DNA from: Candidatus Omnitrophica bacterium UBA6233
GTDB lineage: Bacteria > Omnitrophota > Gorgyraeia > Gygaellales > Profunditerraquicolaceae
NCBI GenBank assembly: GCA_002440965.1
Contig: DJWJ01000026.1
Coordinates: 23,439-87,438, forward strand
Reading direction: 5' to 3'
DNA length: 64,000 nt
The notes beneath the pieces are model-generated. The model saw only the letters and a program-made list of their open reading frames with translations. It had not been told where the DNA came from and did not search any database. The position numbers and the translations under genes were made by a program. Shown here piece by piece: positions 7,277 through 34,100 of the stretch; position 1 is the stretch's first letter; every line of letters starts with the position of its first letter.

Positions 7277-7280
7277 TTTT

Positions 7281-8320: not shown

Positions 8321-8322
8321 AG

Positions 8323-9631: not shown

Positions 9632-9692
9632 ATCTGTCCTCCTATAATATAGTCATTTCCGGCTATTTTCTTATCTAAAGGCGGAATATTAA

Positions 9693-9746: not shown

Positions 9747-10061
9747 TTAAACGGCTCTTAAAACCCTGGACATCCCCATAAAATCCGCTCTCTCCAAGCT
9801 TACCCCGATATTATACTCGCTAGGATTGACCATCCTTGACCAGGCAACTTCTCCCCGGGTATAGAATGGCTCGCCTTTGTCCGGAACATCCAGCCATATC
9901 TCTAGCGGGGTGCGAAGCCTTAATTCCTCCTTCGCCATAAATCCTATGCCCTTAGCGCTGATGTCCCTGGTCTCTCCGGAACCCTCCACACTTGCCCTCG
10001 GATCAATGAATCTTAAGGGGAACCTAGCCTGAAACCGTTCAAAGATTCTTCGGTCATCCAT
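9747..10061 (-). CDS. PilZ-domain c-di-GMP-binding protein
   Basis: 104 aa. It has an RxxxR motif (RRIFERFQARFPLRF) and a D/NxSxxG motif (DISAKGIGF). The SD-like GAGGGGG lies ~8 nt upstream of the ATG. It begins 40 nt after the giant ORF's stop. Confidence 0.8.
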   Translation of the reverse strand: MDDRRIFERFQARFPLRFIDPRASVEGSGETRDISAKGIGFMAKEELRLRTPLEIWLDVPDKGEPFYTRGEVAWSRMVNPSEYNIGVSLERADFMGMSRVLRAV

Positions 10062-10101
10062 CTTTTACCCCCTCTCTTTTAATAAGCGCCTGCGCCATTC
10101 T

Positions 10102-13100
10102 CTACGGCTTTATTATATTCTTATTCTGTTTTTTTTCAACTTTTACCTTATTATTTTTCCCTTCGGCCAGGTTTCTCCATAACTGCTTGACTACATAATA
10201 ACTCTTCCTGGGAATGCGTTTATTCAAGCCGTTCTCCGTCTCTTCGGACACTGCCACAATCCCAAACCATTCCTCATTCATATTTTTATTGTATTTAGCT
10301 CTTATATCATGGTAGTAACTTCCGTTGGACCAGTTCGATTCGGTATTATGAGCCTTCCACCCGTCGCTGTTATTACATTCCTGGGCGGATTCATTATGCT
10401 TCCACCATTCATCTGTCCATTCAAACATTATCCCGCCTAAACAATTGCCCATGCCTTCTTTACTGCCGGCTAAATTTTCATAAATCTGACGCCACTGCAT
10501 CTCCAGGAAATACGCCTGCATATTCTGGTCTTCTTTGTTTAAATAGGCGTCATACGCGTCAGCGCCAAACTCTGCCACCAGAATCGGCTTATCAAGATCG
10601 GCCTTTACAGATTTGAATAAATTCCCGAAGGCCTTACCACGATAAATCATACAGGCGATTAAGTCAACGTCTTTTGTTACGGCCGCAGCCAAAGCTAGAT
10701 TCGTAATTTCACAATTACCTAAGGCTACCGGATGGTTAGGGTCTATTTTATGAATCTCTTTGGCCACTTCATTGACAAAAGAATAGTAAATCCTGGCGCG
10801 CATCTCGATTTGTTTCGAAGGATTCGGTTCTTTGTCGATTCCGCTGGTGCACCAAGGCCTAAATTGTCCGGAGAAAGAACGGTTATTTTCATTACCCAAA
10901 ATCCACATTAAGACTCCCGGTTCATCCTTATACCGATTAACCATTTCTAAAACTTCCCTTTTGATTTTTTCCCGGAAATCCTTAGCATTATACGCGGAGC
11001 AAGGCCCATCCCAGAGCCCCAAATCGTGGCCTAAAATAGTGCGGATACCATAAAGCTTGAAGAAATCCCTGATTACCTGCTTAACTGCCTGCGGATTCTG
11101 CCCAACCGTATAAATTCTGCCTGTATTCAAGCCCATATCTTGCATCAATTTTCCGTCGGTAATCCAAGGCTTACCCGGGTCAGACCACCAGTCATAATCA
11201 TAGTTCTGACCGATAGGTATAGGATTATAACAAACACCTTTAACAATATATGGCTTACGTTCGACTATCAACTGGTGATAGCTGTCTTTGGACTTATTGA
11301 TATAAACCTCGGGCTGAGGAACAGGAGAAATCTGCATTATAGCCATCAAAATAAGGAAAGCGAATAAAACCAAACAAAGCTTTCCTATCTTCTTAACTAT
11401 CCATTTTAATGGACAAAACAAATAACCGGAGACAAGAGCGGCTACGCAAACCAACGGTTTCAACTTCAAGGTAAGATTTCGTAATGCCAGCTTCGCATAT
11501 TCCCAAACAAGAGAATAAGGACGTTCGAATATTCTGGCCTGGGCTGCGATTGCTTCCGGGTCGCTGGAGAATTTTTCGTGGAAGGAGATTTGCGCGACTA
11601 TGAATCTTATTTCTTGAGGAGAAAATCCTAATTTGGCGAGCAGCTGTTCAGTTTCTTTTTTTCGGGCTTTATTCCAGGTTTTATTGGTAGCGATAGGATA
11701 ATCCAATATCGCGGCGTGCTCATCTTCGGTTAAATCTTGGATCAATTTTGCTAATCCTGTTCTTCCTTGCGGAGGCGCCTTAAGTTTACCTGAATAAATA
11801 AGATACCTTACTGCCGCTATCCTGAATAAAGCATTACCAAATTCATTGAACCGCAAAGAAATTCCCCGATGATCATAATAATCAAATTCGGCCTCATAAC
11901 AATCGCGGGCGGTGATAGCGTGCCCGTTCTGCCTGGATAGATTAATAGCGAATAATTTGGCTGCTCTGTATAAAGCAGGCGCTCCCCGCTTGATTCCGCC
12001 CTTATACCTTTCTATCGCCATTTTAGCCAGCCCGGGCGTAGCATATTTAGGAAGAGTCGCTTTCCCTATCGGCATAAAAGCTGCGAATTCTAATTTATCC
12101 CGGCTACCCTGGCCATTCTTATATTCCAACCCATATTCCTGGGAAATCTTTCCTGTTTTCTCCACTAAAAACGCGATCTTTTTTTCGTAAGCCATACTAT
12201 GAAAAGTATCGGCATTTTCTATAATACAATCTTTTAAGGCTTCTAAAGCTTTCTTGATTTTTTTGTCTTTTATAATAGCCAAGGAATAAAAATCTAAACA
12301 GGCCATGAAGAAAATGGCCAAGTCTGTCTTGTGCATCTTTAACCGGTTGTGCAATATTAAACTCCATACTTTCTTTTCTTTTTCCAGAAACCGTATATTT
12401 GGATTACCGTTTTCCCATAGTTTATATTCGATTAATAAACTCTGAAAAAGGGAAGATTCTCTACTATCTAATTCAATACCAAAGAATTTGGCCGTCTTGC
12501 GCAAAAACTGGCTTTTGTTTTCTCTTGTGTTCAATACCGCTTCTAATGCAAATCCGGGCGTAGGATATTTATAGACTATCCCTTTACCAAAAGGAACAAA
12601 AGCAGCTATTTCAAGTTTATCTTTTTCGCCATTGCCGTTGTTATAATTTAAATTATACCTTTGAGACAGCCTGCTTACCTCTGCTATCAACAAGGTTGCC
12701 TTTTTTTCTCTACGCAACTGTTTAAAGAAATGCCTTTTTTGGTACAGGAAAATAACTAATCCCCTGACAGCTTTATGTGTAACAACATCGCTGATGATTG
12801 TATTATCAACTAGCTTAACCCAGATTATCCATTGCGCGGCAATGCCGCCTTTGACTTTATTTAACTTATAAGAATAAAATACAGCTGATAATTCCTTAAT
12901 TTGAGCGATAATACCGGCATCCAAATGCGATTTTTCCCACGCCTTGTATTCGTTAACGGCATTGGTAAAACGCGCGCGCAGGCTTTCGGTAATTCTTTTA
13001 GATAGCTTTATACCAAAAGCATTAGCCCTCATAAGCAGAAGCGGATATTTCTTCTTTATTTGTCCTTGATCATGCATAAGCGCCTTTTCCAGTTCTCTTT

Positions 13101-16100
13101 TCACAATGCCCAGGGTGGGATATTTAGGAAAAACACCGCAGCCCATAGGCGTTAAAGCCGCAAATTCCAGCTTATCTCTTTCGCCTAACGCGCCATTATT
13201 ACCATACCCTAGACCATACTCTTCAGATAATTTATCCGCTTTTATCATTAAAACTCTTGTCCTGTATTCATAAGACATTGACTGAATATTACCTTTCTCT
13301 TTTTCCACATAATCCTTCAATGCCCACAACGCCCTTTTAGTCTGCGCGTCTTTAATCAAAGTTAAACCCTGGATATCCAACCATACCGATATGTAGGCGA
13401 CCGCATCTTTTCCTTTCTTATCTAACCTGTTACTCCTTAATAGTTCCCATAGCTTCTTTTCTTTCGCGATCAGATCTGCATCCTTTTGGGCGCTTTCCCA
13501 GTTGTTGTATTTGACCAGTATTATCTTGTACAGAAACCGGCACCCCTCGGTCAACCTGATGTTGAATGTCTTGGCTGCCCTGTAAAGCATCTGATCCCGG
13601 GCTCCGGATATCCAACTCTCTATTGCTAATCCGGGAGTATGGTATCTTGCGACTTTACCATACAACATTGGAGGCAAAGCCGCGAATTCCAGCTTATCTC
13701 TTTCTCCATTGCCGCAAGCATAATCCAAGCCGTAGCGCTTCGCTAACTCTTCGGCTTCCTTGGCCAAAAATCTTGCCTTGCCCTTGCGGCCTAATTTCAG
13801 GAAATATTCCTTGTCCAGGGATAAGGAAAAAATCAGTCTTTCAACCGCTTTCCTGGTAAGATAGCTGGAAATGGCCAGCTGGCTAAACAGCTTCATCCAT
13901 ACTATCCAGGGATAAATCGGATTTTTTGCATGAAAGAATTCCGTAAAGTTATTGCGCCGGTAGATATCCCAAATCTTTTCGGCCTGGCAGCGTAAATCCA
14001 GGGCTTCATTATCCTTATTATTATGCCTATACTCATCCACAGCTTTTTGATAGGAAGGCGGATTGGGAATGGATTTATTTAATAAGAAAAACTTGCTGGT
14101 TGTCTTGCTTGACCTGATAACAAACATGCTGCTGAAAAATCCGATAAATTTCCTGTCATCGCTTATTTTTCTCCTGACAGCTCCTAATACAGCCCTGCCG
14201 AATCTACTTTCATAGCCTCTCTTGAGCACCGATTCTTCAACATACTGTGCAACTTCACGGGAAAAATCAGCATTCGAGAATATAACCAATAATGCTGTTG
14301 TTAAACGAGATGTACACTCTTTTTTGGATTTCTCGGATAGAATATCTAGAATTACTTTAAACACATCTTCTTTTTTAGTTATGGTATTACCCACCCTATT
14401 CGCTATCGGTTTTTGATATTTTTGTTGGCCCGCTATCAACCTTAACCTCTTCAAAGATTTTTCTTCAATCTGCCTGACTCTTTCTTTTGTCAGACATAAT
14501 AAATCGCCGATTTTTTCAAGGGTCATTCTTCCGTTATCGAAAGAGAACAAGCCGTAACGCAGTATCAACACTATCCTCTCATCATCCTCTAATTTTTCCA
14601 ACATAACGCCTACGGCTTCCTTCAATATTGCCCTGCGGGTATTCTCCTGAGGAGAAGCAAACGTATTTTGTTCGATGAAACTTCCCTGGCTATCTTCGCC
14701 TTCCGAGCTGATTGGAGCATCCAATGATACAGGGTCGCGAATCTCAAGTAGCTTTTTGATTTTTTCTACAGGCAAGCTCATCCGCTGAGCCAGTTCTTCA
14801 GGAGCAGGTTCTCTTCTATATTCCTGTACGAACTTCTGGGAAATCTTCTCTAATTTATATTTTTTCTCCAACATATAAACCGGCGCCCGTATCATATGAT
14901 TCTTCTCCGAAAGTGCTCGGGTAATTGCCTGGCGTGTCCACCAAGAAGCATAAGTGGAGAACTTATTGCCTTTCTTATAATCAAATTTTTCGATAGCCGG
15001 GAACAATCCTAATCTTCCGTAGCCGAATAAATCATCGAATGTCATCCCGCAGCCAGGGTATTTTTTGATAATATCACCCACCAGCCCAAGATTACACATT
15101 ACCAGGCAGCCAGTAATGGTTTTTGTCTCTTCGGGGGCCTTTACCGCGTGAAGAGCTTTAAATAACTCAACCTCTTCTTCTCTGCTCAGGACGTAACGGA
15201 AATTTTTAAATCTAAACTGGGCCAATATTCTCCTAGCTAAGCCTAAGCCATCCTCTTTAATATTCTTAAACAGGACTTTTGCTAACCTCTCTGCAGCCCT
15301 TACGTTTTCTTTTTTATTAATTAAATGCCCGTGCTCATGCTCAAACAGTTCTATTAAAATGGCCTCTTGGTTTGCTTGGATAAGTTTGACTATTAATTCA
15401 AGGGGAATGATAATCTGGGAATTATAAAGGCAGGCGGCTATGAATCTTTCTATGCTATCATACAAAAGTAAGCCCGGAGGGCCTTTTGACCTGACATCCG
15501 AATCAGCAAGAAATAAATAAACATTCTCTTTATTGAGCCAGCGGATTAACTGGGGAGTCAAAGCCAACAACGCCTTTTTATCCTGAGGTAAATCCTTATA
15601 GCGAACAAGACGATTCTCTTTCTGTGCCTTGGAGATGACTTTCTTCGTCTGCTTCTTGGCTTTTTTATCCATAGCGCCTTCTTCATAAATTCCCAACCCG
15701 CAGGCAGAGACATCGGGATCTTCTTCTAACAACTCTTCAATTTTTGTCGTTTCCCGTCCTGAAGCAAACCAGGCAATGCCCACAGGATTAGGCAACTGCA
15801 ACAGCGTAAGCCGCTTTTCTTTAAGCGCAGAAACAACGGCCCGGGTTGAAACGGACACGATTAAGAATGCTGAAAATATTGAAAGGAATAGCATCGCAGT
15901 AAAAAGATTGTTGTAAGAAACAAAGGCACATATAAATAAAGTTATCCCGGAGAAACTGATAATGAAAGGTATTAATGCGCGGCCACGATGATCCGTTAAC
16001 CGGTTCGGGCCAGCTTCCTGAAACGCGCGGCTAAAGGCGCTTTCCGGGCCTCTATTCAACGCTATATCTTTAATTCGCCGGGCCACTCCTTCGGTAAATC

Positions 16101-19100
16101 CTTCGTCGGATAAAACTAACCGCAATGCGCTGGCTAGCCTGCCAAAAACTACGCTATTAGCCTTTTGATTCAAAATATCCACAATCTTTCTCAATACGGC
16201 CTCTCTATCGGCTAGAACATTCTCCGGAATCTCAACAATAGGTTTATTTTCTTTAATGGAGGCCTTGAATATCCTTTTTGACTTCTTGATTGCCGCCTCC
16301 TCTATCTGCCTAATTCTTTCCTCGCTTAAACACAGAAAATTCCCTATTTCTTTACGCGTCTTTGTTTCGCCAGAAGCGCTATATAATCCGTAACGCAAAA
16401 CCAATATTACCCGCTGGTTATCACTTAACTGTGAGAGTAATGTCCTTGTATTTTCTTTTAATATATACCGGTTCGCATTTACTCTGGGAGAAACGAATTT
16501 GTTTTGTTCAATTAAATCTAATAGGCTGTCTTCCCCTGCACCAAATGGAGAATCCAGGGAAATGGGGTCACAAGTTATAATGAGATTTTTAATAGTCTCT
16601 TCGGAAAAATCGGTAATTTCGGCTAACTCTTCCTGCGTAGGATCTCTGCCGAATTCCTGGGTAAATTTCTCAGAAATTAAGCGTAATTTAGATTGCTTCT
16701 TCTGCATATACATCGACACCTGCATCTTATGGGATTCCTTCCTGGACGCTCGGGTAATCGACTGGTATATCCACCAACTGGCATAAGTTATAAACCTATA
16801 ACCTTTTTTATAGTCATATGTTTTAGTAGCCCGCAATAACCCGAGATATCCTTCGCTAACGAATTCTTTTGTTCCTCTCCCACATTTTTTAGCTGTATCA
16901 ATAATAAATCCTAAATTGCACCTTAGTAGGCAATCGAGAATATCTTTTCTTTCGGAAGAACTGATCCCGTTCTCCAGGGCTTTGAACAATTCGATTTCTT
17001 CCTCTTGATTCAAGAGATACCCGCCGCCACATTTCAATTCTTCCAATATTCTTTTAGCCAGATGCCAGCCGTCCTCTTTGATAACGCTCAATAACTCTCT
17101 TGCTAATTCCTCCCCTTCGCCTGTGTCTTCCCGGCCGCCCAGAAGATGCCTCTTCTCGTGTTCAAAGAGTCTTATTAAAAGACTCTCCTGGCCTGCTTGA
17201 ATAAGTTTTGCGATTAATTCAAAGGGGATATAAATGGCGGAGTCGTAAGCGCAGGCGAGTAAAAATCTATCTTTATTTTCATACCAAAGGAATCCCGGAG
17301 GACCTTTTGACATTATCTTAGATGCAGGGAGGACTAGCTGGATATTTTCTTGGTTTAACCAATTCAATAGTTGAGGAGTAAGGACCAATTCCTGTCTTTT
17401 ATCCTGCGGCAAATCCTGATAGCGGAAGATGCGATTCTCTCTTAAGGCCTTGAAGATGATTTTTTCTGTTTCCTTTACCCCCTCCGCGTCCATCGCGCCG
17501 TCGGAAGTATAAATTCCCAACCCGCAGGCAGAATGGTCAGAAGAATTATGGATATCATGATATTGTGTTAGCTGCAAAAGGAAGTTCTTAAATTTTGGAC
17601 TGAAATTGTCAGATAATCCCAATGCCCACCTTAACACAATATCAAAAATATATTCTTCTCTGGTATTCCCTAAAATTGTTTCGGCAGGAGGATTAATCAT
17701 AAAAGTAGCGTGGTCGCAAGTAAGGATGCGGCCGTCGACACTGATGAATAAAAATATTTTATCCGGGCGGCGATGAGAGAAAATATCATCCATACTCAAT
17801 GGTTCCGCTTCCGGCAAAGACTTTGCCCCACCCTGAGCGATAAGATGATTTATATGAAACATTCTTTCGCCCCATATTATATATCTTTCATATAAGCCGT
17901 ATTTTTTAAGAATACGGAACCGGTTTTCCGCACGAGATAACCTTATATTATATGCAGCTCGCAGCCTTCCTTCGCGCCACCTATAACTTTCCTCAATGGC
18001 CTTGATAACCTTTACCATATCTTTGTCTCTTTTTTTCGCCTCTTTTTCATGCCACTGGTCAAGGGAAAAAACTAACTCAACATTATCAGGAATTTTGCCT
18101 AAAAATTTGTCCATCTCTTCATGGTCTTCTGGGAAAGATAAACCATTGGTATCTATATGAACCTCGCCGATGTGCTTGCTGGCGGACCAAAGAATTTCCC
18201 AGAAATCAGCCGAAGGCTGGTTATCCGTATAATTTTTCTTTTTGTAGGCAAAAGGCTCTCCGCCGACAAAATACACACTGGGAAATCCATCTAACTGCCG
18301 GATTATCCTTTTAATCTGATCCATAGGCAAGTCTACGTTAGGATCTTTCTCAATAACATCCTTGGCAATGCAAAATCTACATCTATATGGGCAGCGATGC
18401 GTTATCATAATATTGATATTCGAGTCTAATTTCGGAAACTCCGTCTTTAGGAGATCGAATAAAATCGCTACTCTTTGAGGGGATTTATTTATCATCTGGG
18501 CGGCCTGCTTTCCAACATCGGCTAAGACGCCGGCAGTGAGTTTTTGGATATTCCGGTCTTCGGCTTTTAATGCCTGGATAGCCGCCCGCAGAGTTCCATC
18601 CGAAAGTTTAACTACCCATGGTTTATCTGTCTGGCTTAAAGATTTAACTATCAATCTATAAGTGCGACTGATTTTTACGAAGTCCATAAGATAGGTAGAA
18701 TAAGGGGATCGCGCGCTGTCTTCGATAAACTCAGACTTAGCGATAATATAGTAGATATTTTCTTGCCGGTTTGCAGGTTGCCATCCTAATTTTGCTAAAA
18801 CTTCTATTGCGTCTTTCCAGCGATAAAGAAATCCGCTTTTTAATACTCCGAAAAGAAATTCTTCCAAAGCCCTAAGAAAAGGCTCGACTGCAGATGGGCC
18901 GATTTTAATCAAAGTTTCTATTATGCAATTACAAACACTCCAATTTTCTTGTCCGAATCCAGAGGCGGCTTTAAGCTCATTCTCAACAACAAGGTCATTT
19001 AAGGCTTTAATAAGGCAAGGAATTATGGGTGGGCCGATTTTCACTAATGTGTCCATTGTAAGATGACGGAAATTCCAATCATCATCGTTTAATGCTCCAA

Positions 19101-22100
19101 TAAGATAAAGAACCGCAGGCTCACCGATTCTAACTAAATCCTCCCATCTTTCTTTAGCAATAAAGTAAAGGATTTCTTCTTCCTGACTTACAGGCTGCCA
19201 TCCTAATTTTTCCAAAGCTTTTGCTGCGCATGCACGGACATAATGGCTTTTATCTTCCAAAGCTTTAATAATGACCTGCGTTGCTCTTATATCGCCAATC
19301 TCACCCAAAGTCTTTACTATAGGCATACGAACCATGGCATTATATTCACGATTAAATCTTTCAATCAAAGGTACAACTGCCCCTTTGTATCCAAAGTAAC
19401 CGAGGCTACTAGCTGCGCCGGCACGAACAAACTCATCGGGATGCCTTAATTTATATACATATTTTCCAAATTCTAACTCAAAGGACAGAACTTCTTGCGC
19501 TAAACTTTCTCCTTCTTCGACATTCTCTATGCCGATGGCTAAATCCCTATCTTCGTGTTCAAATACTCGGATTAAAAGCTCTTCAGGGAGTGAGATTATC
19601 AAGTCAAAAGTAAAAATATCCGGACAGGCTACTAAAAATCTCCTGGAATGCTCGTACCAAAGCATGCCCGGAGGACTTCTTGAATTTATACCTGACTCAG
19701 AAAGGACAATATAAGGATTGCGTTCCTCTAACCATCTTGCTACTCGGGGTGTTACTGCTAACTGCTCTTTTTTGTCTTGAGGTAAGTCTTGATAGCGTAG
19801 GAGGCGCTTTTCTTTTTTAGCTTTAAACAAAGCTTCCTTTTTCTTCTGCTGGGCTTTTTTATCAATTTTCCCTTCTTTTGTGTAAATTCCCAAACCGCAG
19901 GCATAGACATCGAAATCTCCTCCTGCTTTCTCCTTAACCACCAATGGTTCTGCCAAAGTATCTAAAGCTTCGACGTTCTTCTTTAAAATCAGTAAATTAT
20001 CCTCGATTTCCTTGTATAAGATGACTTCGGGATATCTTATCTCCTCCAAGGGGATAAAGAGATCTGGGTTTTTTATCTTTTGAAGTATAGCTGCTGTCTC
20101 AATCAAGGCTCCATTAAAACTAGCTATCGTATTTAGCAACGCAACCTTCTCCTGGACAACCCTATTATTCTTATTTCGAAGAGATGCTTCAAGAATAAAT
20201 CGCTCTTTCCTGAGATGCTTAAGATAAGCAAATATCTGTTCTTCTATTATTGGATTCAAACCCTCATCCTTGTTCCCCATGTGGTATTCCAATAACAGTA
20301 ATATTTTTTTCATCTCCCGAGAAAAATATTTTGCCATATCCAATGTTTTCTTTCGACTCTCTTGTAATCGATATGACACTAAGATACTGACTGTGCCTAA
20401 AAATGTTAAAAGACTTATCGCCATGTCAGCTAAACAACTAACCAGATTTCCCGCCATAAAGATCTCTTTTGTAAAAAGAAACACGGGAGAAAGCATTATA
20501 CCTGTGATAATCGACCCATTAACCAAAGCCGCCAGCGCCCGCTTGGGATCTCTTTCGATATACCGCATAAAACCAGGACGATAACCTGCTATAATAATCG
20601 TCAACATAACAGATGTAACAAACGAAGCGAGAGCAAAAGCAATAGCCGACACGGATAAAATCGTAAACTTAACGTATTCCCGCGGACAGACGATGCTTAT
20701 AAAAAAAGATAACAGAAGAGACAAGGCTGCTATAATTATTGATGTTTTTACTCCGCAAAACTGCGTTCTTTTGTTCAATCGGACTTTCCAAACAGACGCT
20801 TTCAATCTCATCCTTACCTTTGATATTATGAATATGGCTAATAGAGGTAAACTGAAGATACTAAAAATATAAACTTTAGAGATGCGGTTTTTTAATAAAA
20901 CTTTGGCTATAGTCTTACGAGTATCTTCATTCTTTTCGCTGAAGAGACTCTTAACAAGAGAAAGAAATGCCCGGAAGCTTATATTCTTTTTCCCGCCTAA
21001 GCCCCTGGCGGCGCAGATGCGGACATAATAATCTTTGTCTTTTAATAATACGCTGGCCAGGCACTCTTCTGTTTTAAGGCCGTTAAAATTACTTAGCGCA
21101 TTGACAGCGGATGCGCGCACGCGCTGATCCGGATGGTTAAGCGCTGCTTCGCTTATGAATTTGGCGCTTTGCGCGGTTCCAATCTTCCCGAGAATGCGGA
21201 TTGCGGTATCGACAGACTGCCACCTTTTGTCCGATAACAAAACGTCCTCAAGGAAACTGACGGCCGAAGGCTCCATGCTACCAAGGGTTTTTTCAGCCAT
21301 AAAGCTAAGGCTATGATACCTGGAATCCAAGTCGTAATACTTATACAATGACAATTCTAAAAGAAGCCATGCCGCCGGATCGCCTTTCTTCTTTAAAGCG
21401 CCCCAATCCCGCCTAGCCAGAAGATAAAGAATCCCCTGCCATTCGCTCTCAGGCTGCCATCCCCAATTAGCAAGCGCCTCTGCCGCAGCAAAACTGACCC
21501 AAGGATCCATATCCCTAAGCGCATCCGCCAATAGAGCCCTGGATTCAGGAAGATCAACCCTGCTTAATTCGCGCACTATGGCCAAACGCTCCTGCCAATT
21601 TTTATTCCCGAATCCTTTTTCCAGGATAATATCGGCAATCTTATTTCCACCTTTACCGGCTAGAATTCCCTGTGTGTCTAAACGAGCTATCAGTTTCTTG
21701 GCCCTGTAAAGGACGATCTGCTCTCTTGCCGATGGCGATATAGCATTCGTAGTCTCAGGGCAATACGTGGCAGAAATAGAGAAAAACACACCGGCCGCAA
21801 AAATAACTCTCAAGATAATCTTTTTTGAATGAAACAGGTTATCTTTTATTTTTAAAAGGGCATTTTTTAGACGACGCATAGCGTAGGACAAAATCTCGGC
21901 ATAACCGGCCCTAAAAAGAAACAAACCATATCCCCAGGAGGGAAGAGTAACAATCATTTCTTCTTTACCGAAAGTAACCAGGACACTCTTCGAGCAGAGT
22001 TTCGCTATAAATCTGTTGTTTATTTTTCCCGGCACTCCGGAGTTGCCTTTATAATAATCAAGAACAGTATTGAAGTTTATTTTAATAATTACTGGATAAA

Positions 22101-25100
22101 GCGAGTGATTAACAAGGACTATGGCGTCTTCTCCGGGCAGGTGCCGCACAAAAGGCACTAACCCTGTATCTTTAATATCAACTTTTCTCCCGCAGAATTC
22201 TATTTCTTCCAAATATGCGCTGAAGAATCTTCCCTTACGAAAAACAGGCCTGGATATAAATTTAATCAACTCTGTGAGCGGCCTAACCGCCAGGGAATTA
22301 TCTTTTAAAACATCCGGGTAGGAAAACTGATAAATACCCGCGTCAGGATTCTTCATCATTATGCGCGCTCCCGGAGGAATTCCCATACCGAAAAGCTGAC
22401 GCAAAGGGATAAGAACATACCCGGGGACAGCATAAGAAATCATTGCCGCAGCCATAAGGCGTTCCATGCCGCCAAAAGCGGCCATTGCCGGAGGCTCATC
22501 GTGAGTTTCGACAAAATGAACGCAGCGGCTTAAGAACTCTTCCTTATGCTCACCCATAAATAGATATCCCCGCAAAGAAGCAATATTCCCTTCTCTAAGC
22601 AAATCGTAGAGATATTTATCATAAGGAATCATCCCGCATTTCTGCAGCGTATCATGCGTCCCATAACCATAAGTTTCAGCCAGCATCAACATATTCGGAT
22701 ATTCCTTGCGGGCATCCTCCCAGAATTCATTAGGCATTGATTTTTGGAATTCTTCCCAGCTTATCCCTAAAGGCTCAACCCAGGTCTTCCAGGTATGCTC
22801 TTTTAACCCCAGGTGCGCCAGATCCGCCCTGAAACCGCCGTTATGGGTAAGATAAGCGATCTTGGCCATTATCTCCTTGATCATGAATCTGCGCGCCCTT
22901 TCATCAAAATAATTCACCTGGGCCAGGTTTATCATCGGCGGGTTCTGTTCAAAGAAAGCGTTTTCCCGGGCATGCATAAAAATAAGCCCGGATGTTTTAT
23001 CCTGTGAAAATGAGTGGTATTCATTTTCTATTAAGAATTTCAACTGCTCATCGCAAAGCCCCCGCGACAAGTTGGGAAAATATCTACGCGCCAATTGAAC
23101 GAATCTCTGGTAATCACCGCTTATTGTTAACTCCGGAGCTTCCTTGATTAATGGTGAATCGGCGGCAATATGGTTAGTTACAAAATCAACGACGACCCTT
23201 ATATTTTTGTGTTCCAAGTTTTCGGCCACCGCCCGGAAATCTTTTTCATTACCGGCGACTTTCGGATTAATGCCGTATTTATAGACATCGTAGCCGGAAG
23301 GGCCCCTCTTCAATGTCTCATTATCTTCCTTGTTCCACTTCTGCATCAATTTCCCGGAAAGCTCGCTTTCTTCCCATGACGCTTTAAACCAGATAACTCC
23401 GATACCCATCCCGGAAAGCCAATTCCAAAATCCCGCGGGAACCCTGTCTACGGTTCCATAAGTGTTACTTAAAGCGCGGCCGTCAATTTCAGTAATTATC
23501 TGCGTGGATTCTTCGGGGGGCCTGCGGAATTCGTTGCTCAAGACAGCGATGGTAGATATTCTTTCCATCTCACGGATATAACTTTTATCAATCTCCGCGA
23601 TTTCTTTTAATTGCTCCACGCCCAGGAGAAACGCCCCTAATTCTTTTCTGTGGTCTCTGTAATAAATGTGGGCATTATGACAAGCGCGTTTATGCGCTTC
23701 TCCCGGAGGGCAATGTAATTCCTTTAATTCTCCTGATTCATGGAGACAGATATCGGGAAGCAATATTTCCTGCAGGCGAGAGTCTTCGATAAGTAACCAG
23801 TGGATAACAAACACCAAAGTATTTGCGTATCTTTTGATTTCAAAAAACTTCCCGTTCTTTCTGCCAATAAGTTCAACTTGTATTTTTATCTGCGGCGGAG
23901 CATGGATTAAAATACCTTCCAGCACTTTTTCTACCTGACTAAGTAAACTCTCTTGCTCCATTTCCGTAAGTTTCCCGCCTATTAAAAATATTCTCAACCC
24001 GGCTTCCCCGTTCTTCTTTTCCAAAAATACCTCCGGCTTCCTAACTTCTTGTTTTGCTGTCCCATGATAACCGCGAGGATCTTCTTCATTTGCGCTCCCT
24101 AGCCAAAAATTAGTAGAGCCGGCTACGGGCTTGGATTGTTCGGCTAAAAGTTGATTAATTATATTCAGTATTTTTCCGTAAGGGTCGTTGCCTTCAAGTA
24201 TACCCTGGCTGAATTTTCTGTATAATTCCTTATATTTAGGATCATAAAATACTTTGGCGGTCTCCTGCCTTAAATCCCTGTAATCGGTTTCTTCAAGCTG
24301 ATCCGGAGTTTGATTCCGGATAGGATAATAATTAAAACTGCAAAGTATCCGCTCAAGTTCTAGAGCTTCGTCGTCAGCCAGGATCTTTTCCTTGTTAAAC
24401 TTTATGATCTTATCTATAAGGTTAACGAACAACCTCGCTTTCCATTCCCGCGTTTCGTATAAAAATACCTTTCCAGCGGATATAGCTTCGGTTAAGCTCA
24501 TATCGCCGGTAGTAGCGACCGGTAAATCTGATATGACAACGAGTTTACTAAAAAGTTCGTGCGGTAAGATACCCGAAGGCGCGATAGTCACCTCTGAACC
24601 TCTGCGTGAGGTTGCCATACTACCGGAACCCATATATCCAAATCCTCTTTCCATTGCCTCCTTGCGCAAATACTCTAGCTCCTCTACCCCATTGGCTGAA
24701 ACGAATATCAATTTATTCTTCTTTGCGAATTCCCTGCTTTCTCTTTCGGAAAAACTCAACATCTGCAGATATTCAACAGCCGAATTATAGACATAAACCA
24801 GGCCGATAAGTGCCTGGCTAAAGTCATTTAAACGAAGCGGGCTGATTTCTTGAATGCCGCTTACCGCAAAGATATCAGAAATAACCTTTTTCCTTTCCGC
24901 AAGCTTTTCTTGAGAATTTAAATTATCGTAATAGGCTTTATACTTAAGAATAGCCGATTCAACAAAGAACCCAATGGCTTCTTTACCAAATCCGGCCTTA
25001 AGCATCAATGCTGAAGGCGACTTGTTCTTCTTAACAGAAGAGGATATTCTCTTAACAGGCGGCACATAATCATATTCTTCCAGGGAGATTTTAATATTCG

Positions 25101-28100
25101 GGGTTCCTCTCAATGCTTCAAAAACGCTTTCTTCCCACCCTTCACTTACAGAAATAAGGATATCCTCTTTTTTTAGGTCTTTTTTGAGAGCCTCTATTTC
25201 CTGAAAAGCTATTTCAACCCCGCTGTCGGCAAGGAATCTGCCAAAATTAATCTTTATAACTTCGTTAAATACGGCCTCATCTTCGGGCCTTCGTTTTACA
25301 TTAACTAATTTTAGTTCTACTTCCGGGACCAATTTTTTTAATCCCTTCGCAAAATTGGCCGCTTCTGCCGCATCACCGCATCTGCCAAAATGCCTGAAGA
25401 GAACTATTATCCTCCCTTTTATCCCTGACGAAGGCGGGCCGCAGATTCCATTAGGCTGGACATTTTGAGGCTTAAGGTCTTTAAGTGGAAGGGGAGAATT
25501 TTTATTCAAGGTGTAATTTTTTAAAAGAAGGGTATCGAGCGCTTCCTTTATCAAAACCCACATTTCCGCTTTTCGCGAGCCGATCTCTGCCAAATGCAAC
25601 TGATACACATCCTTAGTCAGCTTCTTTAATTCCAATAACTGTTTTACCTTTTCAGCGTTAAAAGATAATTCGAGTTCCTCGAAAGCCTTCTCCAGTTTTT
25701 CGGCAAGAATAAGCGCGGCGCGGGAATCATCGTCTTGCGGTATATTATTTAATGTCGCGGCGGCTAATCTAAACAGTTTTCTTTGTTCGCCGCGCGATAA
25801 TCTCCGGTTAAAATACTCTCCAAGCTCGCTTAGATAATCATTAACGTTAATATGCGCGGGCAACCGCCGCTTTTGGTGTTTCTTGGTTGCCGGTATGGCC
25901 ATCAAACTGCGGATAAGCGAACTGGTAATTACTTTCGAACAAGCGGCAGCCTTCATTATTGCCTCTATAAAGTCTTCATCCGCGCAGATAATAGAATCAG
26001 TGCCATAGCTCTCGCCATCCAGATGAGTGGACATCCAAAATACCGCCCTGAAATTATCCTCGGCCCTCTCCTTCCTCAAGGCGTCAATAAGCGCGTTCGA
26101 TTTCTGCAAAACAATATGTTCCAGCTGACAAAATTTTGCCTGTTCAACACAAACCTCTTGGCCTTTGTAAGGATATCTTTTGGAATCCCGCAGCAACTCT
26201 TCCACACTGGAATCTTTAACGCAGTATTCATCCCTGCCAAGCTTATTAATCCAGGCGGCAATATCTTTTATCCGGGCAATTTTAATTAATCTGTCCAACA
26301 TCAGGCTGTCTTCTCTAACGGCAATCTTGGATTTAAAAGTAAAACCTTGCAGGCTGTCCGCGTCTGCTACCACATCCTCATCCGAAATAATAGCGGCCGC
26401 CAGCAAATAGGCTATAGCCGGAGAAACCCTAAAATTGTATTTAAAATACCTCTGCGCAAGGATAGCGCAAGTGCAGGATACCGAATCTTTAATTTCAGAA
26501 TTTTTAGGCGCAGGAATATCGTTTAATTTAGGATGGTGGTCTATGATCGAGATTACCTCAAAAGCCCTGAGCTCTTCTCTTTCAACTCCGCTATAGTCAA
26601 ATGAGGCAAATTTTATTTTCCCTCTTGCTTCATCGGGCATCCGGGCAATCTTTTTGATCGGTTCTTCGATGTTTTGATAATAAATCATATCATTTTCTTT
26701 AATACCAACGTCCCCCAAAACATCCCTTGTCCCCTCATCTAAGCTATCATTCATTACCGGGAAATACTGAACCTTTTTTTCTTCCCCGGGGAGAATATTC
26801 TTAATTTTGGTAAAAAGATGCGCGCCCAAGAATGCCGAGATGCCGCCATCTTTTTCCTGAGTCCGATGCGGCAAGCAAATAACTATTTCTTCATTTATCT
26901 CTTCTCCCTTAGCAATCTTTTCCAAGTAGCCCGTGAGTTTCTGTAAGTTCTGCTCTTTTGAAAACTTTTGCAAATCGGAATCGAAATGCTCCGGAATAAT
27001 ACTTTTTTTGCTTAATAGTTCATTTTTATTTTTGCCTGAATCATCAGGATTTAAGGGTTTTAGGCCATTTATAAATTCATCCAAACCCTTGGCTATAGAG
27101 TTCTTGAATCTTTCAGCCGATTCCACAAAATCACGGTCATATTCAAGGAGCCGCTTTCCTTCCTGGACCTGGCTTAAGAAAATGGTTTTATTTTCTTCGC
27201 ATTTCTTATGCAGCTCCACAGGTTTGGCATATAATTTCAGGAATACTCCAAAATCATCTGCTCCCAAATCATTTTTAGCTGCCTGATAATACCCATACAC
27301 CTCTAAAAACATCAGGAATGACTGCCAACCGATTGCCGCAGACAAAAGATTAGGATAATCTTTAAGGATATTATAAACAGGCCCGCTGATGTAGATAGCC
27401 CCCCGCTTAAGAGAATGACGAATATAACAACGGGAACCGTTCTTGCCCTGCGCAAGAAAAGGATAGGCCTGGCCTGTTATCTCCAGAGCGACTATGTCGA
27501 GATTCCTTTCATCGAGGAACTTATTATAGGCTTCCTTAATCTCTTCCGGAGCCCATCCGTTTAAATACCCAAAGGCAGCCAAAGCGGAAATAATGCCCGG
27601 GGCAAGCTTTTTTATTTCCCGGATGGTTTTTTCAATACGGCTTCTCTCTTTAAACCTTCTGTCCTCACACCCCTTTTCGCTGGAGGAAAACTTAATATCC
27701 TTATCTCCCCACAATAAATACATACCTCTGCTTTTTCGAACCGACTCTTTTAAAATCTGTTCGGGTATCTCATCGACAGGCAAAAGCACTTTCTTTATCA
27801 GTCCTGCGACATCCGAGGAAAAGATATAGGTAAGGATAGATTTCATTTTAAAATAAAAATATTTCGGACGGACAGTCCCTTTTATCGCCGCTAAAAGGGA
27901 TTCATTGCTGGCCTCAACATAAAACTTCTTTTCTTTTTCTTCCCGCGATAAATTAAACTTAAGGGAATTTACGTCACTGATTTTTATAATCTTTATGTGC
28001 GACTTCCAGCGATTCAACAGAACATCCCGGTCAAAAGGCTCATTCTCCGTATCAATAGTTTTAACTGTTATATTCGCTACAGGAAGAACCCAGCTGATAA

Positions 28101-31100
28101 GCCTGAATAAACTTACTACCATAATATTGAGCAGAGGCCGTTCCTTAATATATTCTAATGTCTTTTTCAAAATTTTAAGTTGCTCGGTATTAACTGCGTA
28201 AGGGGCTCTTACATCCATTAAAGCCAAAGCAATACAATTGCTTTCCCAGGGCTTAAGCCCGGCCTCATCAAAAAGAGACAAAGGAAGGTTTCCCTCGGGG
28301 TGAATACTTCCATCAATCAATTCCCATTTTCTATATTCTCCTTTATACTTACCTATCCATATTACCGGATTAAATATTACGGGAAGCGAAATACTGGCTC
28401 TTATGGCTAAGTCTATGGGCATATCCGGGCAATTCTCTGCGTTTAGCTTCAAGAGCCTCTTAGTGAGGTAATCTACAGCTGTAACTGTCAGATTAAACGG
28501 GTAATTGGCTTCTTTAAGCTCACCGAAAGTGGGGATAAAACCAAACCTGTCTATTATAAGGCTTCTAATCCACTCTAATACGGCGTCTCCTTTAGATATT
28601 CCTCCGCGGGAAAGAAGATTCCAAGTGAAACCAATACTGCCAACGGGAGGGTTGGAGAATCCGGATGCGTCCGTATCGTATGCTTTTTCTTTGGCGGCCC
28701 TGGCATCATAACCAAGCATCAAGAATAAAGCGACAATTGCCCCTATTGACGTCGCTCCCAGATTAGTAAAACAATATCCTTCTTTTTCTATTGCCTCTAT
28801 AATTTGGTAATAACGTAAACCGTCGATGCCGCCTCCGGGAATTATACCGTAATCAATCAGCTTCTTGCTTTGCCGGTATTTTTCAATCTCCGGGATTACC
28901 TTTCGAATCTGCTCTTTTCTCCATTCTTTACATTCAATATCTGGTCCTTTGGTATCCGGCGATACTGCGGTTTTCTCCTTGTGTCTTTCCTTAAAATCGG
29001 AGATCTCGGCAGCCAGGCCGTGCCAAAAACAAAAGATGGCAAAGGCAAGCATAGGAATAAAGAAAAAAACTACCGTCAGGAATAAACAGGTGTTTTCACT
29101 TACGTTAGAACCCGGCCCCATGGGCCAACCGGCAGTTAGAATACCTGTTAAGAAAAAGGTTGTTAGAGATACAACAGGCAGGAATAAACGGAAAATGCGG
29201 CTGCGGATTCTCGCTAAAATACTGCCGGATTTACCGGCTGGCGGCTGGTTGCGCGCTTTATCCGGTTGAACGGAATTTTGTGTTTTGGAAGCGCTTTCGT
29301 TTTCCGGAAAAATAAGAATATTCAATTCGGTTTCTTTATCAAAGAAATACGCGCGTTTCATATCAAATACTACGTCTATCTCTGTGTCTTTCTTGGGCCG
29401 GCCTTTTGTAAAGACTGCCTTAAAATTAATGCCATCAACAGAAAGCCCAACCTCTGCCTTTGAACCTAACTCTTCAGTTATATCTACTTTTACATGCACC
29501 GCATTATATGGACTATATAATCCCTGAACCTGAACATTCTGGGCATATAGCTTATCGTATATATCATTTGGCCTTATGCCAAAAAAGATATCCTTATTAA
29601 CATAGCCGGATATTTGCTCCGCCATTGTATCGTCAATTTTTAGAATAAAATTTTCTCCTGCCTTAAAATAATACCCTTCATTTCGTAAAATCTTCCCTTC
29701 TATGAAATTCATCGATGGGGAACCGATAAAACCAGCGACAAATTTATTCTTCGGCTTATCATAAACATCCATAGGTTCCCCGATTTGCTGGATAGTGCCG
29801 TCTTTCATCACCATTATCCGCGTGCCCATAGTTAAAGCTTCAATTTGATCATGGGTAACGAAAATAAAGGTGGTCTCTTTGCCTAAACGCTGATGCAGCT
29901 TTTTCAGCTCGGTACGCATCTGGCCGCGCAGCTTAGCGTCTAAATTACTTAAGGGTTCATCAAAAAGAAAAACCAACGGTTTACGCACAATAGTACGACC
30001 GATAGCCACGCGCTGTCTCTCGCCGCCGGAAATATTACGAGGCTTCTTCTCAAGCAGTTCTACGATACCTAAAATCTGGGCTGCTTCCGTAACTTTAGCT
30101 TTAATCAATTCTTTCTTTACTTTTCTCAGCTTTAACCCAAAAGCCATATTCTCAAAAATTGTCATATGGGAATAGAGCGCATAATTTTGGAAAACCAGAG
30201 CAATGTTACGGTCTTTTGCCGGCGTGTCATTAACAAGATTGTTTCTTATATATATTTTCCCTTCGCTTATCTCTTCCAAACCAGCAATCATCCTTAGTGT
30301 AGTAGACTTCCCGCATCCTGACGGCCCGACTATAATAAAAAATTCTCCTTCATCAACCTCAAAATCTATGGATTTAACCGCATAATGCACCGGATCCTTG
30401 CTTCTGCCGGGATAAATTTTACTTAACTTAACGGCTCTCACGCTCTTATTCAAAGCTGAATCGCATTCTTTTACCCTATCGGCCTTTTGATTAGCTTCGG
30501 TTTCTGAATGCGCGAATAATCTGGTTTGGCTAAGTCTTTTTGCTTGATAAACTTTGATTGCTTTATAAATTTTATAGCCCAGATAAATCAGTAGCCCGGC
30601 AGATATAACCACTTTAGCTAAAACGGACAGTCCGCTTAAAAACGGCAAGCCGGCGAACAAGGATACATTGGCCGGAGAAACATTGGCATAACAATCCCGC
30701 ATTTTTTGGTACCGATCATTCAAGGAATTTTTCTTTGCGCCGTAAAATCTAAAAGACGGGGCCCTATCTTTAGAAAATATCCACTCCGGCAGTTCATCCT
30801 GCAGGATTTCTTCTTCCGGCCATAGCGGTATGCTCATCCAATCCATCCCGCTTATATCGATTGCGGCAAACAGCTTCCCTAATCTTCTCTGATGCGCCTG
30901 AGCAAAGAAACGGCCTCTCGCAGCCCAGGCGAGCGGAGCATCGGTTCCCTCTATTGCATGCGGACCCCTCTTACCAGTAAGGTAATCTAAACGTTTCCTG
31001 CTGTTTTTAAGCGGTATTCCTTCCAGAAGAGCATCCATCCATCCGCGAGTCTTTTCCTCGCTTCCCAGCTCTTTAGCGTAATCCAGAATATATTTTCCCA

Positions 31101-34100
31101 CGTATTCAATGGCTCGGTATCCTCTTTTGGCCAAGCTCATGAATTCCCCGAATTCTTTATAGGCGTATTCGTTATAATAAGGAGGCAATTCCAGGAACAA
31201 ATGATGCTCTTTAAGCCATGTCCTTATATTTTTATTCTCCAAGCCGGCGCTAAAAACCAACCTAAGCAGATTCAAAGTTTCCAGCCATTCCTCCTGCGGA
31301 TAGATGCCGATTTTTTCTAACTCTTTAAGCGCTTCATTAAAGGCGGGCCAGATTTCGTCTGAAGTAATATAGCGGTCAATGATTTTATGCACAAAATCAT
31401 CGTTATCAGGATAGTAGCAATGCAGTAATTCTTCGAGAAGCGTAAGAAAGATAACCGGGGGCGGGGCGCGGCTTAATACTGGATTCCATTGAATATATCC
31501 GTCGATAACGCAAGCCAGCCTTTCCAGGAGATGCTCTGAACTCAACCTTACATCCGGATTCTTGAGGATGCGGACAAATAAATCATTCGGTTGAGGATTA
31601 TTTTGCTGGAATTGGGCCATTGTTTTTAACGCCTCTGCTAAAGGTTCGACTAAGAATTGCGGCAAACTGCCTTTAAATTTCAGCGCGTTATTTTCTACAA
31701 ATAAACTGATCGTAGAGTCTTCATATTTATCCCCCTTATAACTTAAAGATTTATCAATCAGAAAACGCGAAGTATGGAAATTTGCAGATGGCGTTTTTGT
31801 TCCGCTGGATTTGCATAATATCACCTTGTTCCTGCCTGAACCTTTGGCCTGATAAAGCGCCTTATCCGCGCTATCTATTAACTTCTCAAAGGACATATCC
31901 GGTTTTAAACCAGCTACTCCTATGCTTACAGTGCACTTTAAACTCAACGCCTTGCCTTCATACGAGGCTACGAATTCATTCTTCTCGATTGCCTTTCTAA
32001 TATTTTCGGCAACTGTTTCACAAGCATCATTTTCCTTGGTATGCGGCAAAATTATCGCAATCTCCTCGCCGCCGTAACGGCAGACAATATCTCCGTCTCT
32101 GACCATTTTTCTTATCAATACCGCGATTTCCTTAAGAACAAAATCCCCGGTTAAATGGCCGAACTCATCGTTATATTTTTTGAAATAATCGATATCCAAA
32201 ATCAACAAAGACAAAGGATACTTATACCTTCGGGCATTCTTAATCTCTATGGGCAAATGTTCGTTGAAATACCCGCGGTTAAAAATGTTCGTCAGAAGAG
32301 GATCTATGGAAACCTTGCCCCTAAGCTTACGGTTCTCGGCTTTAAGAGTTTCGTTTTCCAGCAGGACTTTCCGGTATTCTTCGGAAGTAACAAGACAGCC
32401 CGGCTCTGAATACGCGTAATCTTTCAAATCGGAACCGCGTATGCCGCGCCTTACTCTATCGCTAATTTCTTCCAGCGACTTATGGTCTCCGACAGCAAAA
32501 GTCGGCGCGTTAGGAACTATCGCCTTATTCATCTCAACCAGCATCTGCGCCGCGCCAAATCCTATAAAGGAATTTATTCCGTATTCATCTTTCATCCGCC
32601 TCATAGCATCCGCCTGAAAAACCGGCCTCAAAAATCCTTTTTCCAATTCATCGCGGACATCACGGGCAGTTGTAATCACTCCCTGTGTCGCGGAAGAGGT
32701 AATTATAGGCACGCGGGGGCCACGACAAACAAACCCCTTTAACCAATCCCGCAGCTTATCCTCTGCGCCTATTCCGTAAAAACTGTTATGCACTGTCTTT
32801 CTTGCAGAATGCAAGAACCTAACTCTTCTAACTCCACTCTCTCTTGTAGTATTTATGAAAGACAGGATTTTTTCTTTTAAACTCTGCAGCTCTTCTTCCC
32901 GGAGGCGCGCCGCCAAGGTTAACAAAAACGGAGAGTTATCCGAAAGCATTTCTACTTTTCCGGGTATGAGTAGTTTTTCTATTTCCCTGCGGCTTACGCC
33001 TTGTATAAGAATCGTTGTATAATCCACATCTGTTCTTGCGCTGGTGTATTCTGTCAGGTTTCTGATATAACAAAGCCCCTGTTGTAACGATATGGCTCCG
33101 GATAAAACAAAAGATGTTATAACTCCTACGCTATATCCCTCAAAGAAACGGGGGGCAAAACTTTTTCCTGTTTTCTCGACAAAAACTTTATATGCCCCGA
33201 TTGAATATAAAAATCCCGCGAGGGCAAGGACTGAAAAGTTATTTTCGTCGGCGGCGAAACTATACAGCAATAATCTCTCGACAGGATATTTAGCTCCTAA
33301 AAACCGGGAGGCGCCGCGATACAACCTCTTGATAGCAGGATACTCATTATATAAGCCGCGGATGCCAGAGATATTCTGCTGGGTAACGGATTTCGTAGGC
33401 GGGAAGATACAGGCGATATCTTTAGCAGGATGAGTTAAACGGGAACAATCATTGTTTTTTAACCATCTAATATAACTGGAGTCCGGACTAAGGCCTGCCT
33501 CCGTGATATCTTCAATATAAGAAGATAATAAGATATTCCTTTCTTCTGCCAGTTCTAAGGTATAAGCGACATCTCTCAGATTCTGTTCGTTTTCAAATTC
33601 GGCATCAAATCTGCCAAAAATAAGATGGGATATCTCATGGAAAAACATCACCTGGGCAACGATATATTTTATATTCAGGTTGAAAATAGCATGGACTGTC
33701 TCGGGACAAATAAAGATCGCGGTTAGGCTTAGAGAGGAGACTTGCGCGGTATAAGGAGAATTTCTTTTGATCTTATCTACACCGATAATTTTAAGGATTA
33801 ATTCTTCCTGTCTTGTCCTGGATTTAACTGCTTCAATAAGCGCACCCCGGGCAGCTTCGGAGAAAACCTCTAACGTTTTATCTAGAAGGATACTTACATT
33901 TCTTGCTTCCGCTACCTTTTTAAAGTCTTTCTCTGCGGATACGATTATCTCTTTTTCCCCGGAAACGCCCTTCCTGCAGAAATCATCCGCTAAAGCGCAA
34001 CTGTCTTTTTGCATTTCCGAAGCCTGCCAATAATTACACTTTCTATCCTCCACAAGTATCATTCTACTCTTATACCGCACATAGCATCTTAACTGCTGCC

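Follow-up and report, generated by a model that had tools for sequence, protein, structure and literature searches.

The 64-kb window analysed here (64,000 nt of contig DJWJ01000026.1 of Candidatus Omnitrophica bacterium UBA6233; "window" denotes this whole stretch) is dominated by a single giant open reading frame (ORF) on the minus strand. The subject of this report is a module which occurs in that ORF in three copies, one located ahead of a HEAT-repeat array and two ahead of sigma-70 factors (Table 1). By means of Pfam, ROK, APH, HMGL-like/homocitrate-synthase-like, VWA, AAA_5, NHL, GGDEF, MalK-type ABC ATPase, patatin, amylase-like, HEAT_2, radical-SAM and two sigma-70 domains were identified in the encoded protein, which belongs to the "Archaeovorin"-type or multi-enzyme giant-protein class of Omnitrophota. 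Domains normally found as separate proteins are thus strung together in one ORF, dozens of hydrophobic segments are distributed across it, and a GH2-like end follows the last of these segments. No competing ORF is present on the plus strand, DNA-level repeats are short and confined to stretches coding for conserved motifs, and sequence matches of the window were obtained for NCBI assembly GCA_041649345.1 and a JGI metagenome.

In a preliminary description of this DNA, the region 15412-19929, corresponding to amino acids (aa) 14665-16170 of the giant ORF, was described as containing three paralogous modules of ~105 aa with conserved Cys residues at both ends. A profile built from the three copies gave exactly three significant matches across all six frames (E 1e-91 to 1e-102), and the copies are pairwise 46-53% identical (BLAST E 1e-33 to 1e-47). 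Chance is therefore excluded and the three paralogues are real; beyond them, no further significant copy was found in a profile scan of the giant ORF. The borders have to be revised. In the alignment, similarity runs past "RF..AC" via "IPxELI..L....LLIxLFEHExxHL...E.v.EgE.LA", the helix motif FEHExxH being part of the module beyond the formerly assumed C-terminal "AC", and homologues from other proteins align to profile positions of about 8-160. The module thus measures about 160-185 aa instead of ~105 aa, and copy 3 therefore extends past position 15412 to about 15181.

Copies 2 and 3 carry an intact HExxH motif (HEKRH and HEHGH, respectively), and copy 1 a degenerate HEDRD in which the second His is missing. 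Copy 1 is followed by the HEAT array, copy 2 is preceded by the radical-SAM domain and followed by the first sigma-70 factor, and the second sigma-70 factor is situated directly after copy 3. A hydrophobic hairpin ends ~30 aa before copy 3, and a hydrophobic cluster is located 150 aa before copy 1. Both sigma-associated copies lie inside one ~525-aa tandem duplication consisting of module, sigma-70 and tail (aa 15457-15979 and 16065-16590), and therefore the sigma-70 pairing represents one event and not two.

A weak candidate for a fourth copy, diverged and degenerate ("AYGRGNITDEEID ... LFYELTKL ... KAKELEY"), is aligned by both family profiles over 113-131 columns, which is not significant (hhalign P 2e-3 and 3e-4, probability 13-39%). 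Two isolated HExxH helices, "MFFHEISHLIFG" and "AAFLHELVHYLA", possess a module-like hydrophobic lead-in. They are not related to the module above noise (hhalign P 0.01-0.26) and could represent other small zincin-like elements.

Table 1. Features of the window, listed along the giant ORF and followed by the neighbouring genes (all on the minus strand)
Feature	Window position	Residues (aa)	Strand	Evidence or remark
Giant ORF	10102..63921	17,939 in total	minus	Translation table 11, without stop codon
Tandem duplication of ~240 aa	57508-58974	1650-2138	minus	67% identical
Weak candidate for a fourth module copy	43444-43878	~6682-6826	minus	Both family profiles, not significant
Isolated HExxH helix AAFLHELVHYLA	42777-42791	7044-7048	minus	
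Isolated HExxH helix MFFHEISHLIFG	33624-33638	10095-10099	minus	
MalK-type ABC ATPase with OB domain	29560-30375	~11183-11454	minus	
Module copy 1	19402..19926	14666-14840	minus	Three-copy profile, hmmsearch E 8.5e-91; family profile A2, E 3e-54
HEDRD of copy 1	19543-19557	14789-14793	minus	Degenerate motif
HEAT-repeat array, cargo behind copy 1	18532..19401	about 14841-15130	minus	Pfam HEAT_2 E 3.4e-38, best stretch aa 14825-14904
Radical-SAM domain, between HEAT array and copy 2	17602..18408		minus	Pfam Radical_SAM E 5.8e-12, aa 15172-15293
Module copy 2	17005..17556	15456-15639	minus	Three-copy profile; AlphaFold model
HEKRH of copy 2	17146-17160	15588-15592	minus	Intact HExxH
Sigma-70 #1, RpoD/RpoS-like, regions 1.2-4, directly after copy 2	16252..17019	about 15635-15890	minus	Pfam Sigma70_r2/r3/r4
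Hydrophobic hairpin, two predicted membrane helices, between the sigma-70 #1 tail and copy 3	15820..15984	15980-16034	minus	Kyte-Doolittle, 19-aa windows scoring 2.4
Module copy 3	15181..15729	16065-16247	minus	Three-copy profile
HEHGH of copy 3	15325-15339	16195-16199	minus	Intact HExxH
Sigma-70 #2, RpoD-like, regions 1.2-4, directly after copy 3	14416..15192	about 16244-16502	minus	Pfam
Four tandem repeats of ~180 aa each	11905-14106	16606-17339	minus	29-40% identical
PilZ-domain gene	9747-10061	104 in total	minus	
Sugar ABC transporter solute-binding protein and two permeases (separate genes)	6428-9702		minus	

With respect to the cargo in the window, sigma-70 #1 matches NCBIfam RpoD_Cterm (E 1e-51) and, from profile position 112 onwards, PRK09210, all below the equivalog cut-offs; sigma-70 #2 matches PRK05658 (E 6.5e-72) and RpoD_Cterm (E 9e-70), both likewise below the cut-offs. 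Sigma-70 #2 also resembles MzaA, the sigma factor of the MZA anti-phage system, with an E-value of 5e-63 that is again below the cut-off. Within the radical-SAM domain, a motif scan revealed CxxxCxxC at aa 15177.

No consistent name for the module was obtained from Pfam, NCBIfam and PHROGs, a PDB sequence search with both family profiles produced noise only, and Foldseek comparison of the module model to PDB and BFVD gave nothing significant. The impression that no named domain is involved was thus borne out, and a structural match to a well-characterised domain, for which a check had been proposed, did not emerge from these two structure sets. Among curated peptidase families no significant match was found, single members reaching SprT-like, DUF4953 and Peptidase_M8 only at E 0.17-0.37. 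A word-indexed homologue search yielded nothing for copy 2 and only the fragment P0039 for a profile of 31 sequences. An exhaustive profile search, which covered 1.84 billion protein cluster representatives, identified 45 module-bearing representatives, 22 of them at E <=1e-10. Most are proteins of 1,000-7,000 aa, and some contain 2-4 copies. Of the representatives with a named source, 11 out of 13 belong to Candidatus Omnitrophota/Omnitrophica; most are flagged as partial and are therefore fragments of giant proteins. As judged from these representatives, the family appears almost only in giant multi-enzyme proteins of Candidatus Omnitrophota. One of the representatives is P0017 (416 aa, on a 9.9-kb contig and not flagged as partial), which bears the source name "ATP-binding protein" and in whose module the HE motif is deleted. 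P0005 (NCBI MEM7817070.1) is a module-bearing fragment on a 2.9-kb contig labelled Candidatus Aenigmatarchaeota, from an archaeal metagenome-assembled genome (MAG). This label may be due to a binning error or may hint at a transfer between an Omnitrophota predator and its archaeal host.

Conservation was assessed in a family alignment of 31 sequences (A2), to whose columns the following counts refer. The N-terminal strand [small]-C-G-x-G-[IV]-[YF] is characterised by G12 and G14 (28/30 each), both more strongly conserved than its Cys (24/30), and D23 (22/31) precedes an amphipathic helix. The central part is marked by PP86-87 (26/31 and 29/31), W91 (27/31), R/K97 (26/30) and F98 (28/31), followed by P111 (26/31) and L114 (30/31) and then by hydrophobic positions. 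H133 is present in 20 of 30 sequences, with Phe in 8; E134, its partner in the HE pair, is found in 27 of 30. Further downstream, E143 (20/30), E149 (21/31), L151 (28/31) and A152 (25/31) are conserved. Cysteines at both ends are indeed a property of the three window copies, but not of the family, in which the second one (C102) is not conserved. For the latter reason, a metal-binding Cys pair is not supported.

A census of 51 foreign module copies, i.e., copies outside the window, revealed HExxH in 23, HQxxH in 2, HExx followed by another residue in 11 and FExxN in 10 copies, the motif of the remaining 5 being otherwise degenerate. All four copies of the protein P0001 read HE(D/R)(D/K)R. Where His residues are lost, the first Cys and the motifs PPxxW, RF and LL..I persist. 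A sister subtype, type B (alignment A4), is homologous to the subtype of the window (hhalign probability 99.8%, E 1.8e-27). It shows "LSRGLTPED" in place of the CGxG strand, with Ser replacing the first Cys. In 9 of 12 sequences its motif reads HEA[RK]H, and a further, near-invariant His follows 11 residues past the second His. A cysteine switch, in which the N-terminal Cys would cap the zinc, was considered and rejected, as this Cys is retained in most His-less copies and is a Ser in type B sequences with HExxH.

An AlphaFold model of copy 2, calculated with the 31-sequence alignment, reached a pLDDT of 88.7 and a pTM of 0.82, with 133 residues at pLDDT >=90; a model based on three-copy input was discarded due to a pLDDT of only 55.7. 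The predicted fold starts with the CGxG strand (residues 9-13, pLDDT about 96) and helix 24-39 (pLDDT >90), a conserved element formerly taken for a KK-rich linker. Two short helices, the strands 72-75, 91-94, 97-104 and 107-111, and helix 112-120 follow, then helix 124-138 as the carrier of HExxH, and a long helix from residue 145 that includes E149. The predicted sheet includes the conserved PPxxW and RF strands together with the CGxG strand. The candidate positions for a third ligand, E143 and E149, thereby map to the loop behind the HExxH helix and to the first turns of the next helix, for which type B shows its near-invariant His instead of a Glu. The minimal zincin-like metallopeptidase (MPTase) core is composed of an N-terminal helix, a three-stranded sheet, the HEXXH helix and a Glu helix (PMC5512222; PMC3890501), and in the model the order of elements of the module matches this core. 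An HExxH motif within a helix, as in the MEROPS clan MA type, occurs in copies 2 and 3 and not in copy 1. Taking the model and the motif together, a zincin-like nature of the module is likely, although not proven.

The model also bears on the proposal that the module is a recognition or cleavage site which liberates the downstream domain. The module does not resemble a passive site, but the protease idea survives in an altered form: with an HExxH helix and a zincin-like layout, the module would be a protease itself or the dead descendant of one. A low-complexity or disordered linker was rejected in view of the pLDDT and of the Lys-rich stretch being a conserved helix. We regard it as very unlikely that the module is a passive element, either a recognition and cleavage site for a separate protease, e.g., of the C39 or S8 type, or a structured spacer. 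The glycine-rich N-terminal [small]-C-G-x-G would suit such a role, and C39 and S8 peptidases have been proposed as processing enzymes of Omnitrophota giant proteins (bioRxiv 10.1101/2023.11.21.568195). However, a conserved domain of ~170 aa, modelled at pLDDT 88.7, far exceeds the needs of a cleavage site, the conserved HE and Glu positions are left unexplained, and neither C39 nor S8 domains were detected in the giant ORF (Pfam, E <=1e-3).

The genomic context of the module was examined in the 330 residues downstream of 39 foreign copies. None of these flanks contains a sigma-70 domain (0/39) and only 2 contain HEAT_2. Instead, the foreign cargo comprises starch synthase (GT5), PGM/PMM, NDK plus cytidylate kinase, Gfo/Idh/MocA oxidoreductase, DUF218, DprA, protein kinase, response regulator, HD, STAND NTPase and others, and BLAST clustering of the flanks revealed no common downstream partner. 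In the ten cases that were examined individually, the cargo starts at Pfam profile position 1-3, 10-27 residues past the module match (families GT5, PGM_PMM_I, NDK, GFO_IDH_MocA, DUF218 and Response_reg), and thus begins at its would-be native N-terminus. The linker between module and cargo amounts to only a few residues in several homologues, and in the window both sigma domains start with region 1.2 immediately behind their module. Upstream flanks are mostly unannotated, except for one GDE_C domain which ends 6 residues before the module. An upstream membrane tether was rejected as a general rule, being found for only 8 out of 43 modules. Judged from these flanks, the module heads cargo units of giant Omnitrophota proteins in general and is specific neither for sigma-70 nor for HEAT. 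Of the formerly proposed fixed position before regulatory domains, the position directly ahead of a functional unit is maintained throughout the family, whereas the pairing with regulatory domains is not.

Due to this family-wide context, an anti-sigma or sigma-docking element, as originally considered, or a Cys-dependent element (intein/Hint-like or a Cys-pair metal site) is effectively refuted and appears extremely improbable. Two of the three window copies do precede a sigma-70 factor, and in all three the first ~90 residues are bordered by a Cys on either side, but both sigma pairings go back to the single duplication, and the lack of sigma-70 in the 39 foreign flanks argues against an anti-sigma or sigma-docking role. 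Moreover, no HxxxCxxC (ZAS) motif and no match to anti-sigma families of Pfam or NCBIfam was found, and the first Cys is a Ser in type B. An intein or Hint-like unit was rejected because the model shows an alpha/beta fold with long helices instead of an all-beta one, a C-terminal His-Asn is absent, the second Cys is not conserved and Pfam Hint/intein profiles did not match.

Considering motif, fold and position, it is tempting to speculate that the module is a processing or releasing metallopeptidase-type unit heading its cargo, many copies of which have become degenerate. We put this forward tentatively and with somewhat less than even confidence. Intact copies would bind zinc and would cleave the giant chain at module boundaries or close to them, either in cis or between modules. 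Such cuts would free or activate the cargo units, here the two RpoD-like sigma factors behind copies 2 and 3. Since the link between module and cargo is very short and upstream sequences vary, cutting seems more plausible ahead of the module, or in trans, than at its C-terminus. Copy 1 with its HEDRD and about half of the family would be non-catalytic copies that have lost their metal ligands. In favour of a processing function are the 23 of 51 foreign copies with HExxH and the presence of this motif in window copies 2 and 3 as well as in the orthologue of copy 3 in a related locus (L001, see below).

Several points weigh against it. The second His is missing from about half of the copies, so that a function common to the whole family cannot be canonical zinc catalysis; moreover, FExxN occurs as a consistent alternative in 10 of the 51 copies, and all four copies of P0001 are degenerate. 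The third metal ligand is putative, with E143 and E149 as sequence-conserved candidates, and only 3 of the many domain junctions in the 17,939-aa protein carry a module. Owing to the short linker, self-cleavage at the C-terminus of the module looks sterically awkward. Finally, cleavage of the giant protein by the module is a prediction from sequence and model.

The same degenerate copies can be accommodated by the main rival reading, a non-catalytic, zincin-derived adaptor or regulatory cap, which would serve as the fixed N-terminal domain of each cargo unit without any cleavage; we consider this possible, yet rather unlikely. Such an adaptor might hold its cargo in a scaffold, mediate oligomerisation or docking, or mask the cargo N-terminus, and for the sigma factors it might take the place of the autoinhibitory region 1.1. 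Since the RpoD alignments start at region 1.2, the module would replace region 1.1. Half of the copies without a complete HExxH, the coherent FExxN variant, the uniformly degenerate P0001 copies, the extremely short linker and the module of P0017 minus its HE motif are all in good agreement with an adaptor, and so is the retention of the first Cys, PPxxW, RF and LL..I despite the loss of His. On the other hand, HExxH is intact in 45% of the copies and in 9 of 12 type B sequences with their near-invariant downstream His, 27 of 30 sequences keep the Glu of the HE pair, and the retention of HExxH in copies 2 and 3 and in a 59%-identical orthologue is unexpected for a purely structural role.

An intact HExxH could also belong to a metal-dependent hydrolase or other enzyme acting on an external target, i.e., other proteins, prey proteins or a small molecule, with the position of the module being a by-product of cassette assembly. 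HEXXH does not always indicate self-processing, as exemplified by an alpha-ketoglutarate-dependent HEXXH enzyme in the biosynthesis of ribosomally synthesised and post-translationally modified peptides (PMC12636437). A role in predation has been proposed for Omnitrophota giant proteins (bioRxiv 10.1101/2023.11.21.568195). However, both the cytoplasmic nature of the cargo (sigma factor, NDK, PGM, response regulator) and the strict register of its N-termini with the module are hard to obtain by chance assembly, and several copies per protein, many of them degenerate, fit better to a role at junctions. We therefore judge an external target to be improbable.

In a locus search with the three-copy alignment, a related MAG contig, L001 (CAYPRG010000001.1), was found which is open across 2,179 codons. 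It contains one unit of a module (HEEKH) and a sigma-70 factor, and this module is orthologous to copy 3 (59% identity). Positions 1-6537 of L001, labelled "uncultured Planctomycetales", are 73% identical to the window protein over aa 13330-14001 and 48% over aa 16048-17138. Compared to L001, the window protein carries an additional block of ~2,050 aa (aa 14001-16048), which comprises copy 1, the HEAT array, the radical-SAM domain, copy 2 and sigma-70 #1; about 300 unrelated residues occupy the corresponding place in L001. As read from this comparison, the difference is a block-level insertion or deletion inside the giant gene, and the gain or loss of module-headed units evidently takes place in whole blocks.

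The closest counterpart among known systems is given by the zincin MPTase domains interspersed in phage and plasmid polyvalent proteins, for which a role in autoprocessing has been predicted (Iyer et al. 2017, PMC5512222). Like the module, the MPTases of these phage and conjugative-element proteins are small HExxH domains, with the core layout that the model suggests for the module, are present in one to five copies per very large polypeptide, often between unrelated enzymatic domains, are predicted to process the polypeptide, and form clades that are not close to classical peptidase families. In contrast, the module family is cellular and, as far as sources can be named, Omnitrophota-specific, and its hosts are proteins of 3,000 to >17,000 aa made up of housekeeping-type enzymes and sigma factors. 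It further differs by the extra CGxG strand, the strict register before cargo N-termini and the fact that about half of its copies are ligand-less. A link to phage families was found neither by sequence nor in PHROGs.

Minigluzincins or mini-zincins such as selecase MJ1213 (PDB 4qhf), proabylysin and Acel_2062 (PMC3890501), which model the catalytic cores of M48 and M56 peptidases (e.g., BlaR1), were also compared to the module. All scores were below significance and no sequence-profile match was obtained, the module being about 60 residues longer at its N-terminus and containing an additional helix ahead of the HExxH helix. In addition, minigluzincins and M48/M56 peptidases stand alone or sit in the membrane, whereas the module is embedded in giant proteins.

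With regard to position, the module resembles the "releasing peptidases" of polymorphic toxins, which sit upstream of the toxin cargo (Zhang et al. 2012, PMC3482391). In both instances a protease domain or putative protease domain is located within a very large protein and upstream of cargo, which the releasing peptidases free by autoprocessing. These peptidases, of which there is usually one per protein, release secreted toxin domains, whereas the cargo of the module consists of cytoplasmic enzymes and regulators. Built-in autoprocessing upstream of cargo is likewise found in MARTX toxins, whose cysteine protease domain is a Cys protease of a different fold. Sigma-70 region 1.1 and membrane-tethered sigma or anti-sigma systems, which proteolysis sets free, share with the module the position N-terminal to region 1.2 of RpoD-like domains, one of which has a membrane hairpin downstream. 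Unlike region 1.1 and anti-sigma families, to which it shows no similarity, the module heads many non-sigma cargos.

Further observations concern other parts of the giant ORF and its neighbourhood. A MalK-type ABC ATPase with an OB domain is embedded in the ORF, and just downstream of it separate genes encode a sugar ABC transporter solute-binding protein and two permeases. An ATPase gene belonging to this transporter was not seen in the window. The embedded ATPase may serve the adjacent transporter, for which it would need to be released or at least accessible. A PilZ-domain gene is situated between the giant ORF, whose own domains include a GGDEF, and the transporter genes. After sigma-70 #2, four tandem repeats of ~180 aa without Pfam match occur, which are also present in L001. 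The tandem duplication of ~240 aa in the N-terminal part includes a hydrophobic hairpin, and a 30-aa hydrophobic motif, "RGSALGVVILS.LFASI.LFAIPALA", recurs in near-identical form at aa 5569 and 6217.

Giant genes of Omnitrophota encode up to >85,000 aa, and according to the literature it is not known if their products work uncut or are cleaved, nor where the cleavage points lie (bioRxiv 10.1101/2023.11.21.568195). Sigma factors are not mentioned in the Omnitrophota giant-protein literature that was checked. The fold class of the module and the occurrence of protease domains embedded in multidomain proteins are already known. New are a sequence family that is absent from the searched Pfam, NCBIfam, PHROGs and PDB-sequence libraries, its apparent restriction to Omnitrophota giant proteins, and its strict position before the presumed native N-termini of cytoplasmic-type enzymes and sigma factors. 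With at least 45 clusters and two subtypes, the family provides annotators with a new domain model, and two full RpoD-like sigma factors are shown to be embedded in an Omnitrophota giant protein.

For the processing of giant proteins, the module supplies concrete candidate junctions together with a candidate enzyme. Even if it were non-catalytic, it would still be a defined "cassette head" helping to split giant proteins into units. A further-reaching and rather doubtful extension is that Omnitrophota giant proteins are true cellular polyproteins, in which lineage-specific mini-zincin modules cut defined junctions and thereby release housekeeping-type enzymes and regulators, including RpoD-like sigma factors. 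If this were true, the module family would mark the long-sought cleavage points, and the dosing and timing of many activities from one 54-kb gene would be set post-translationally.

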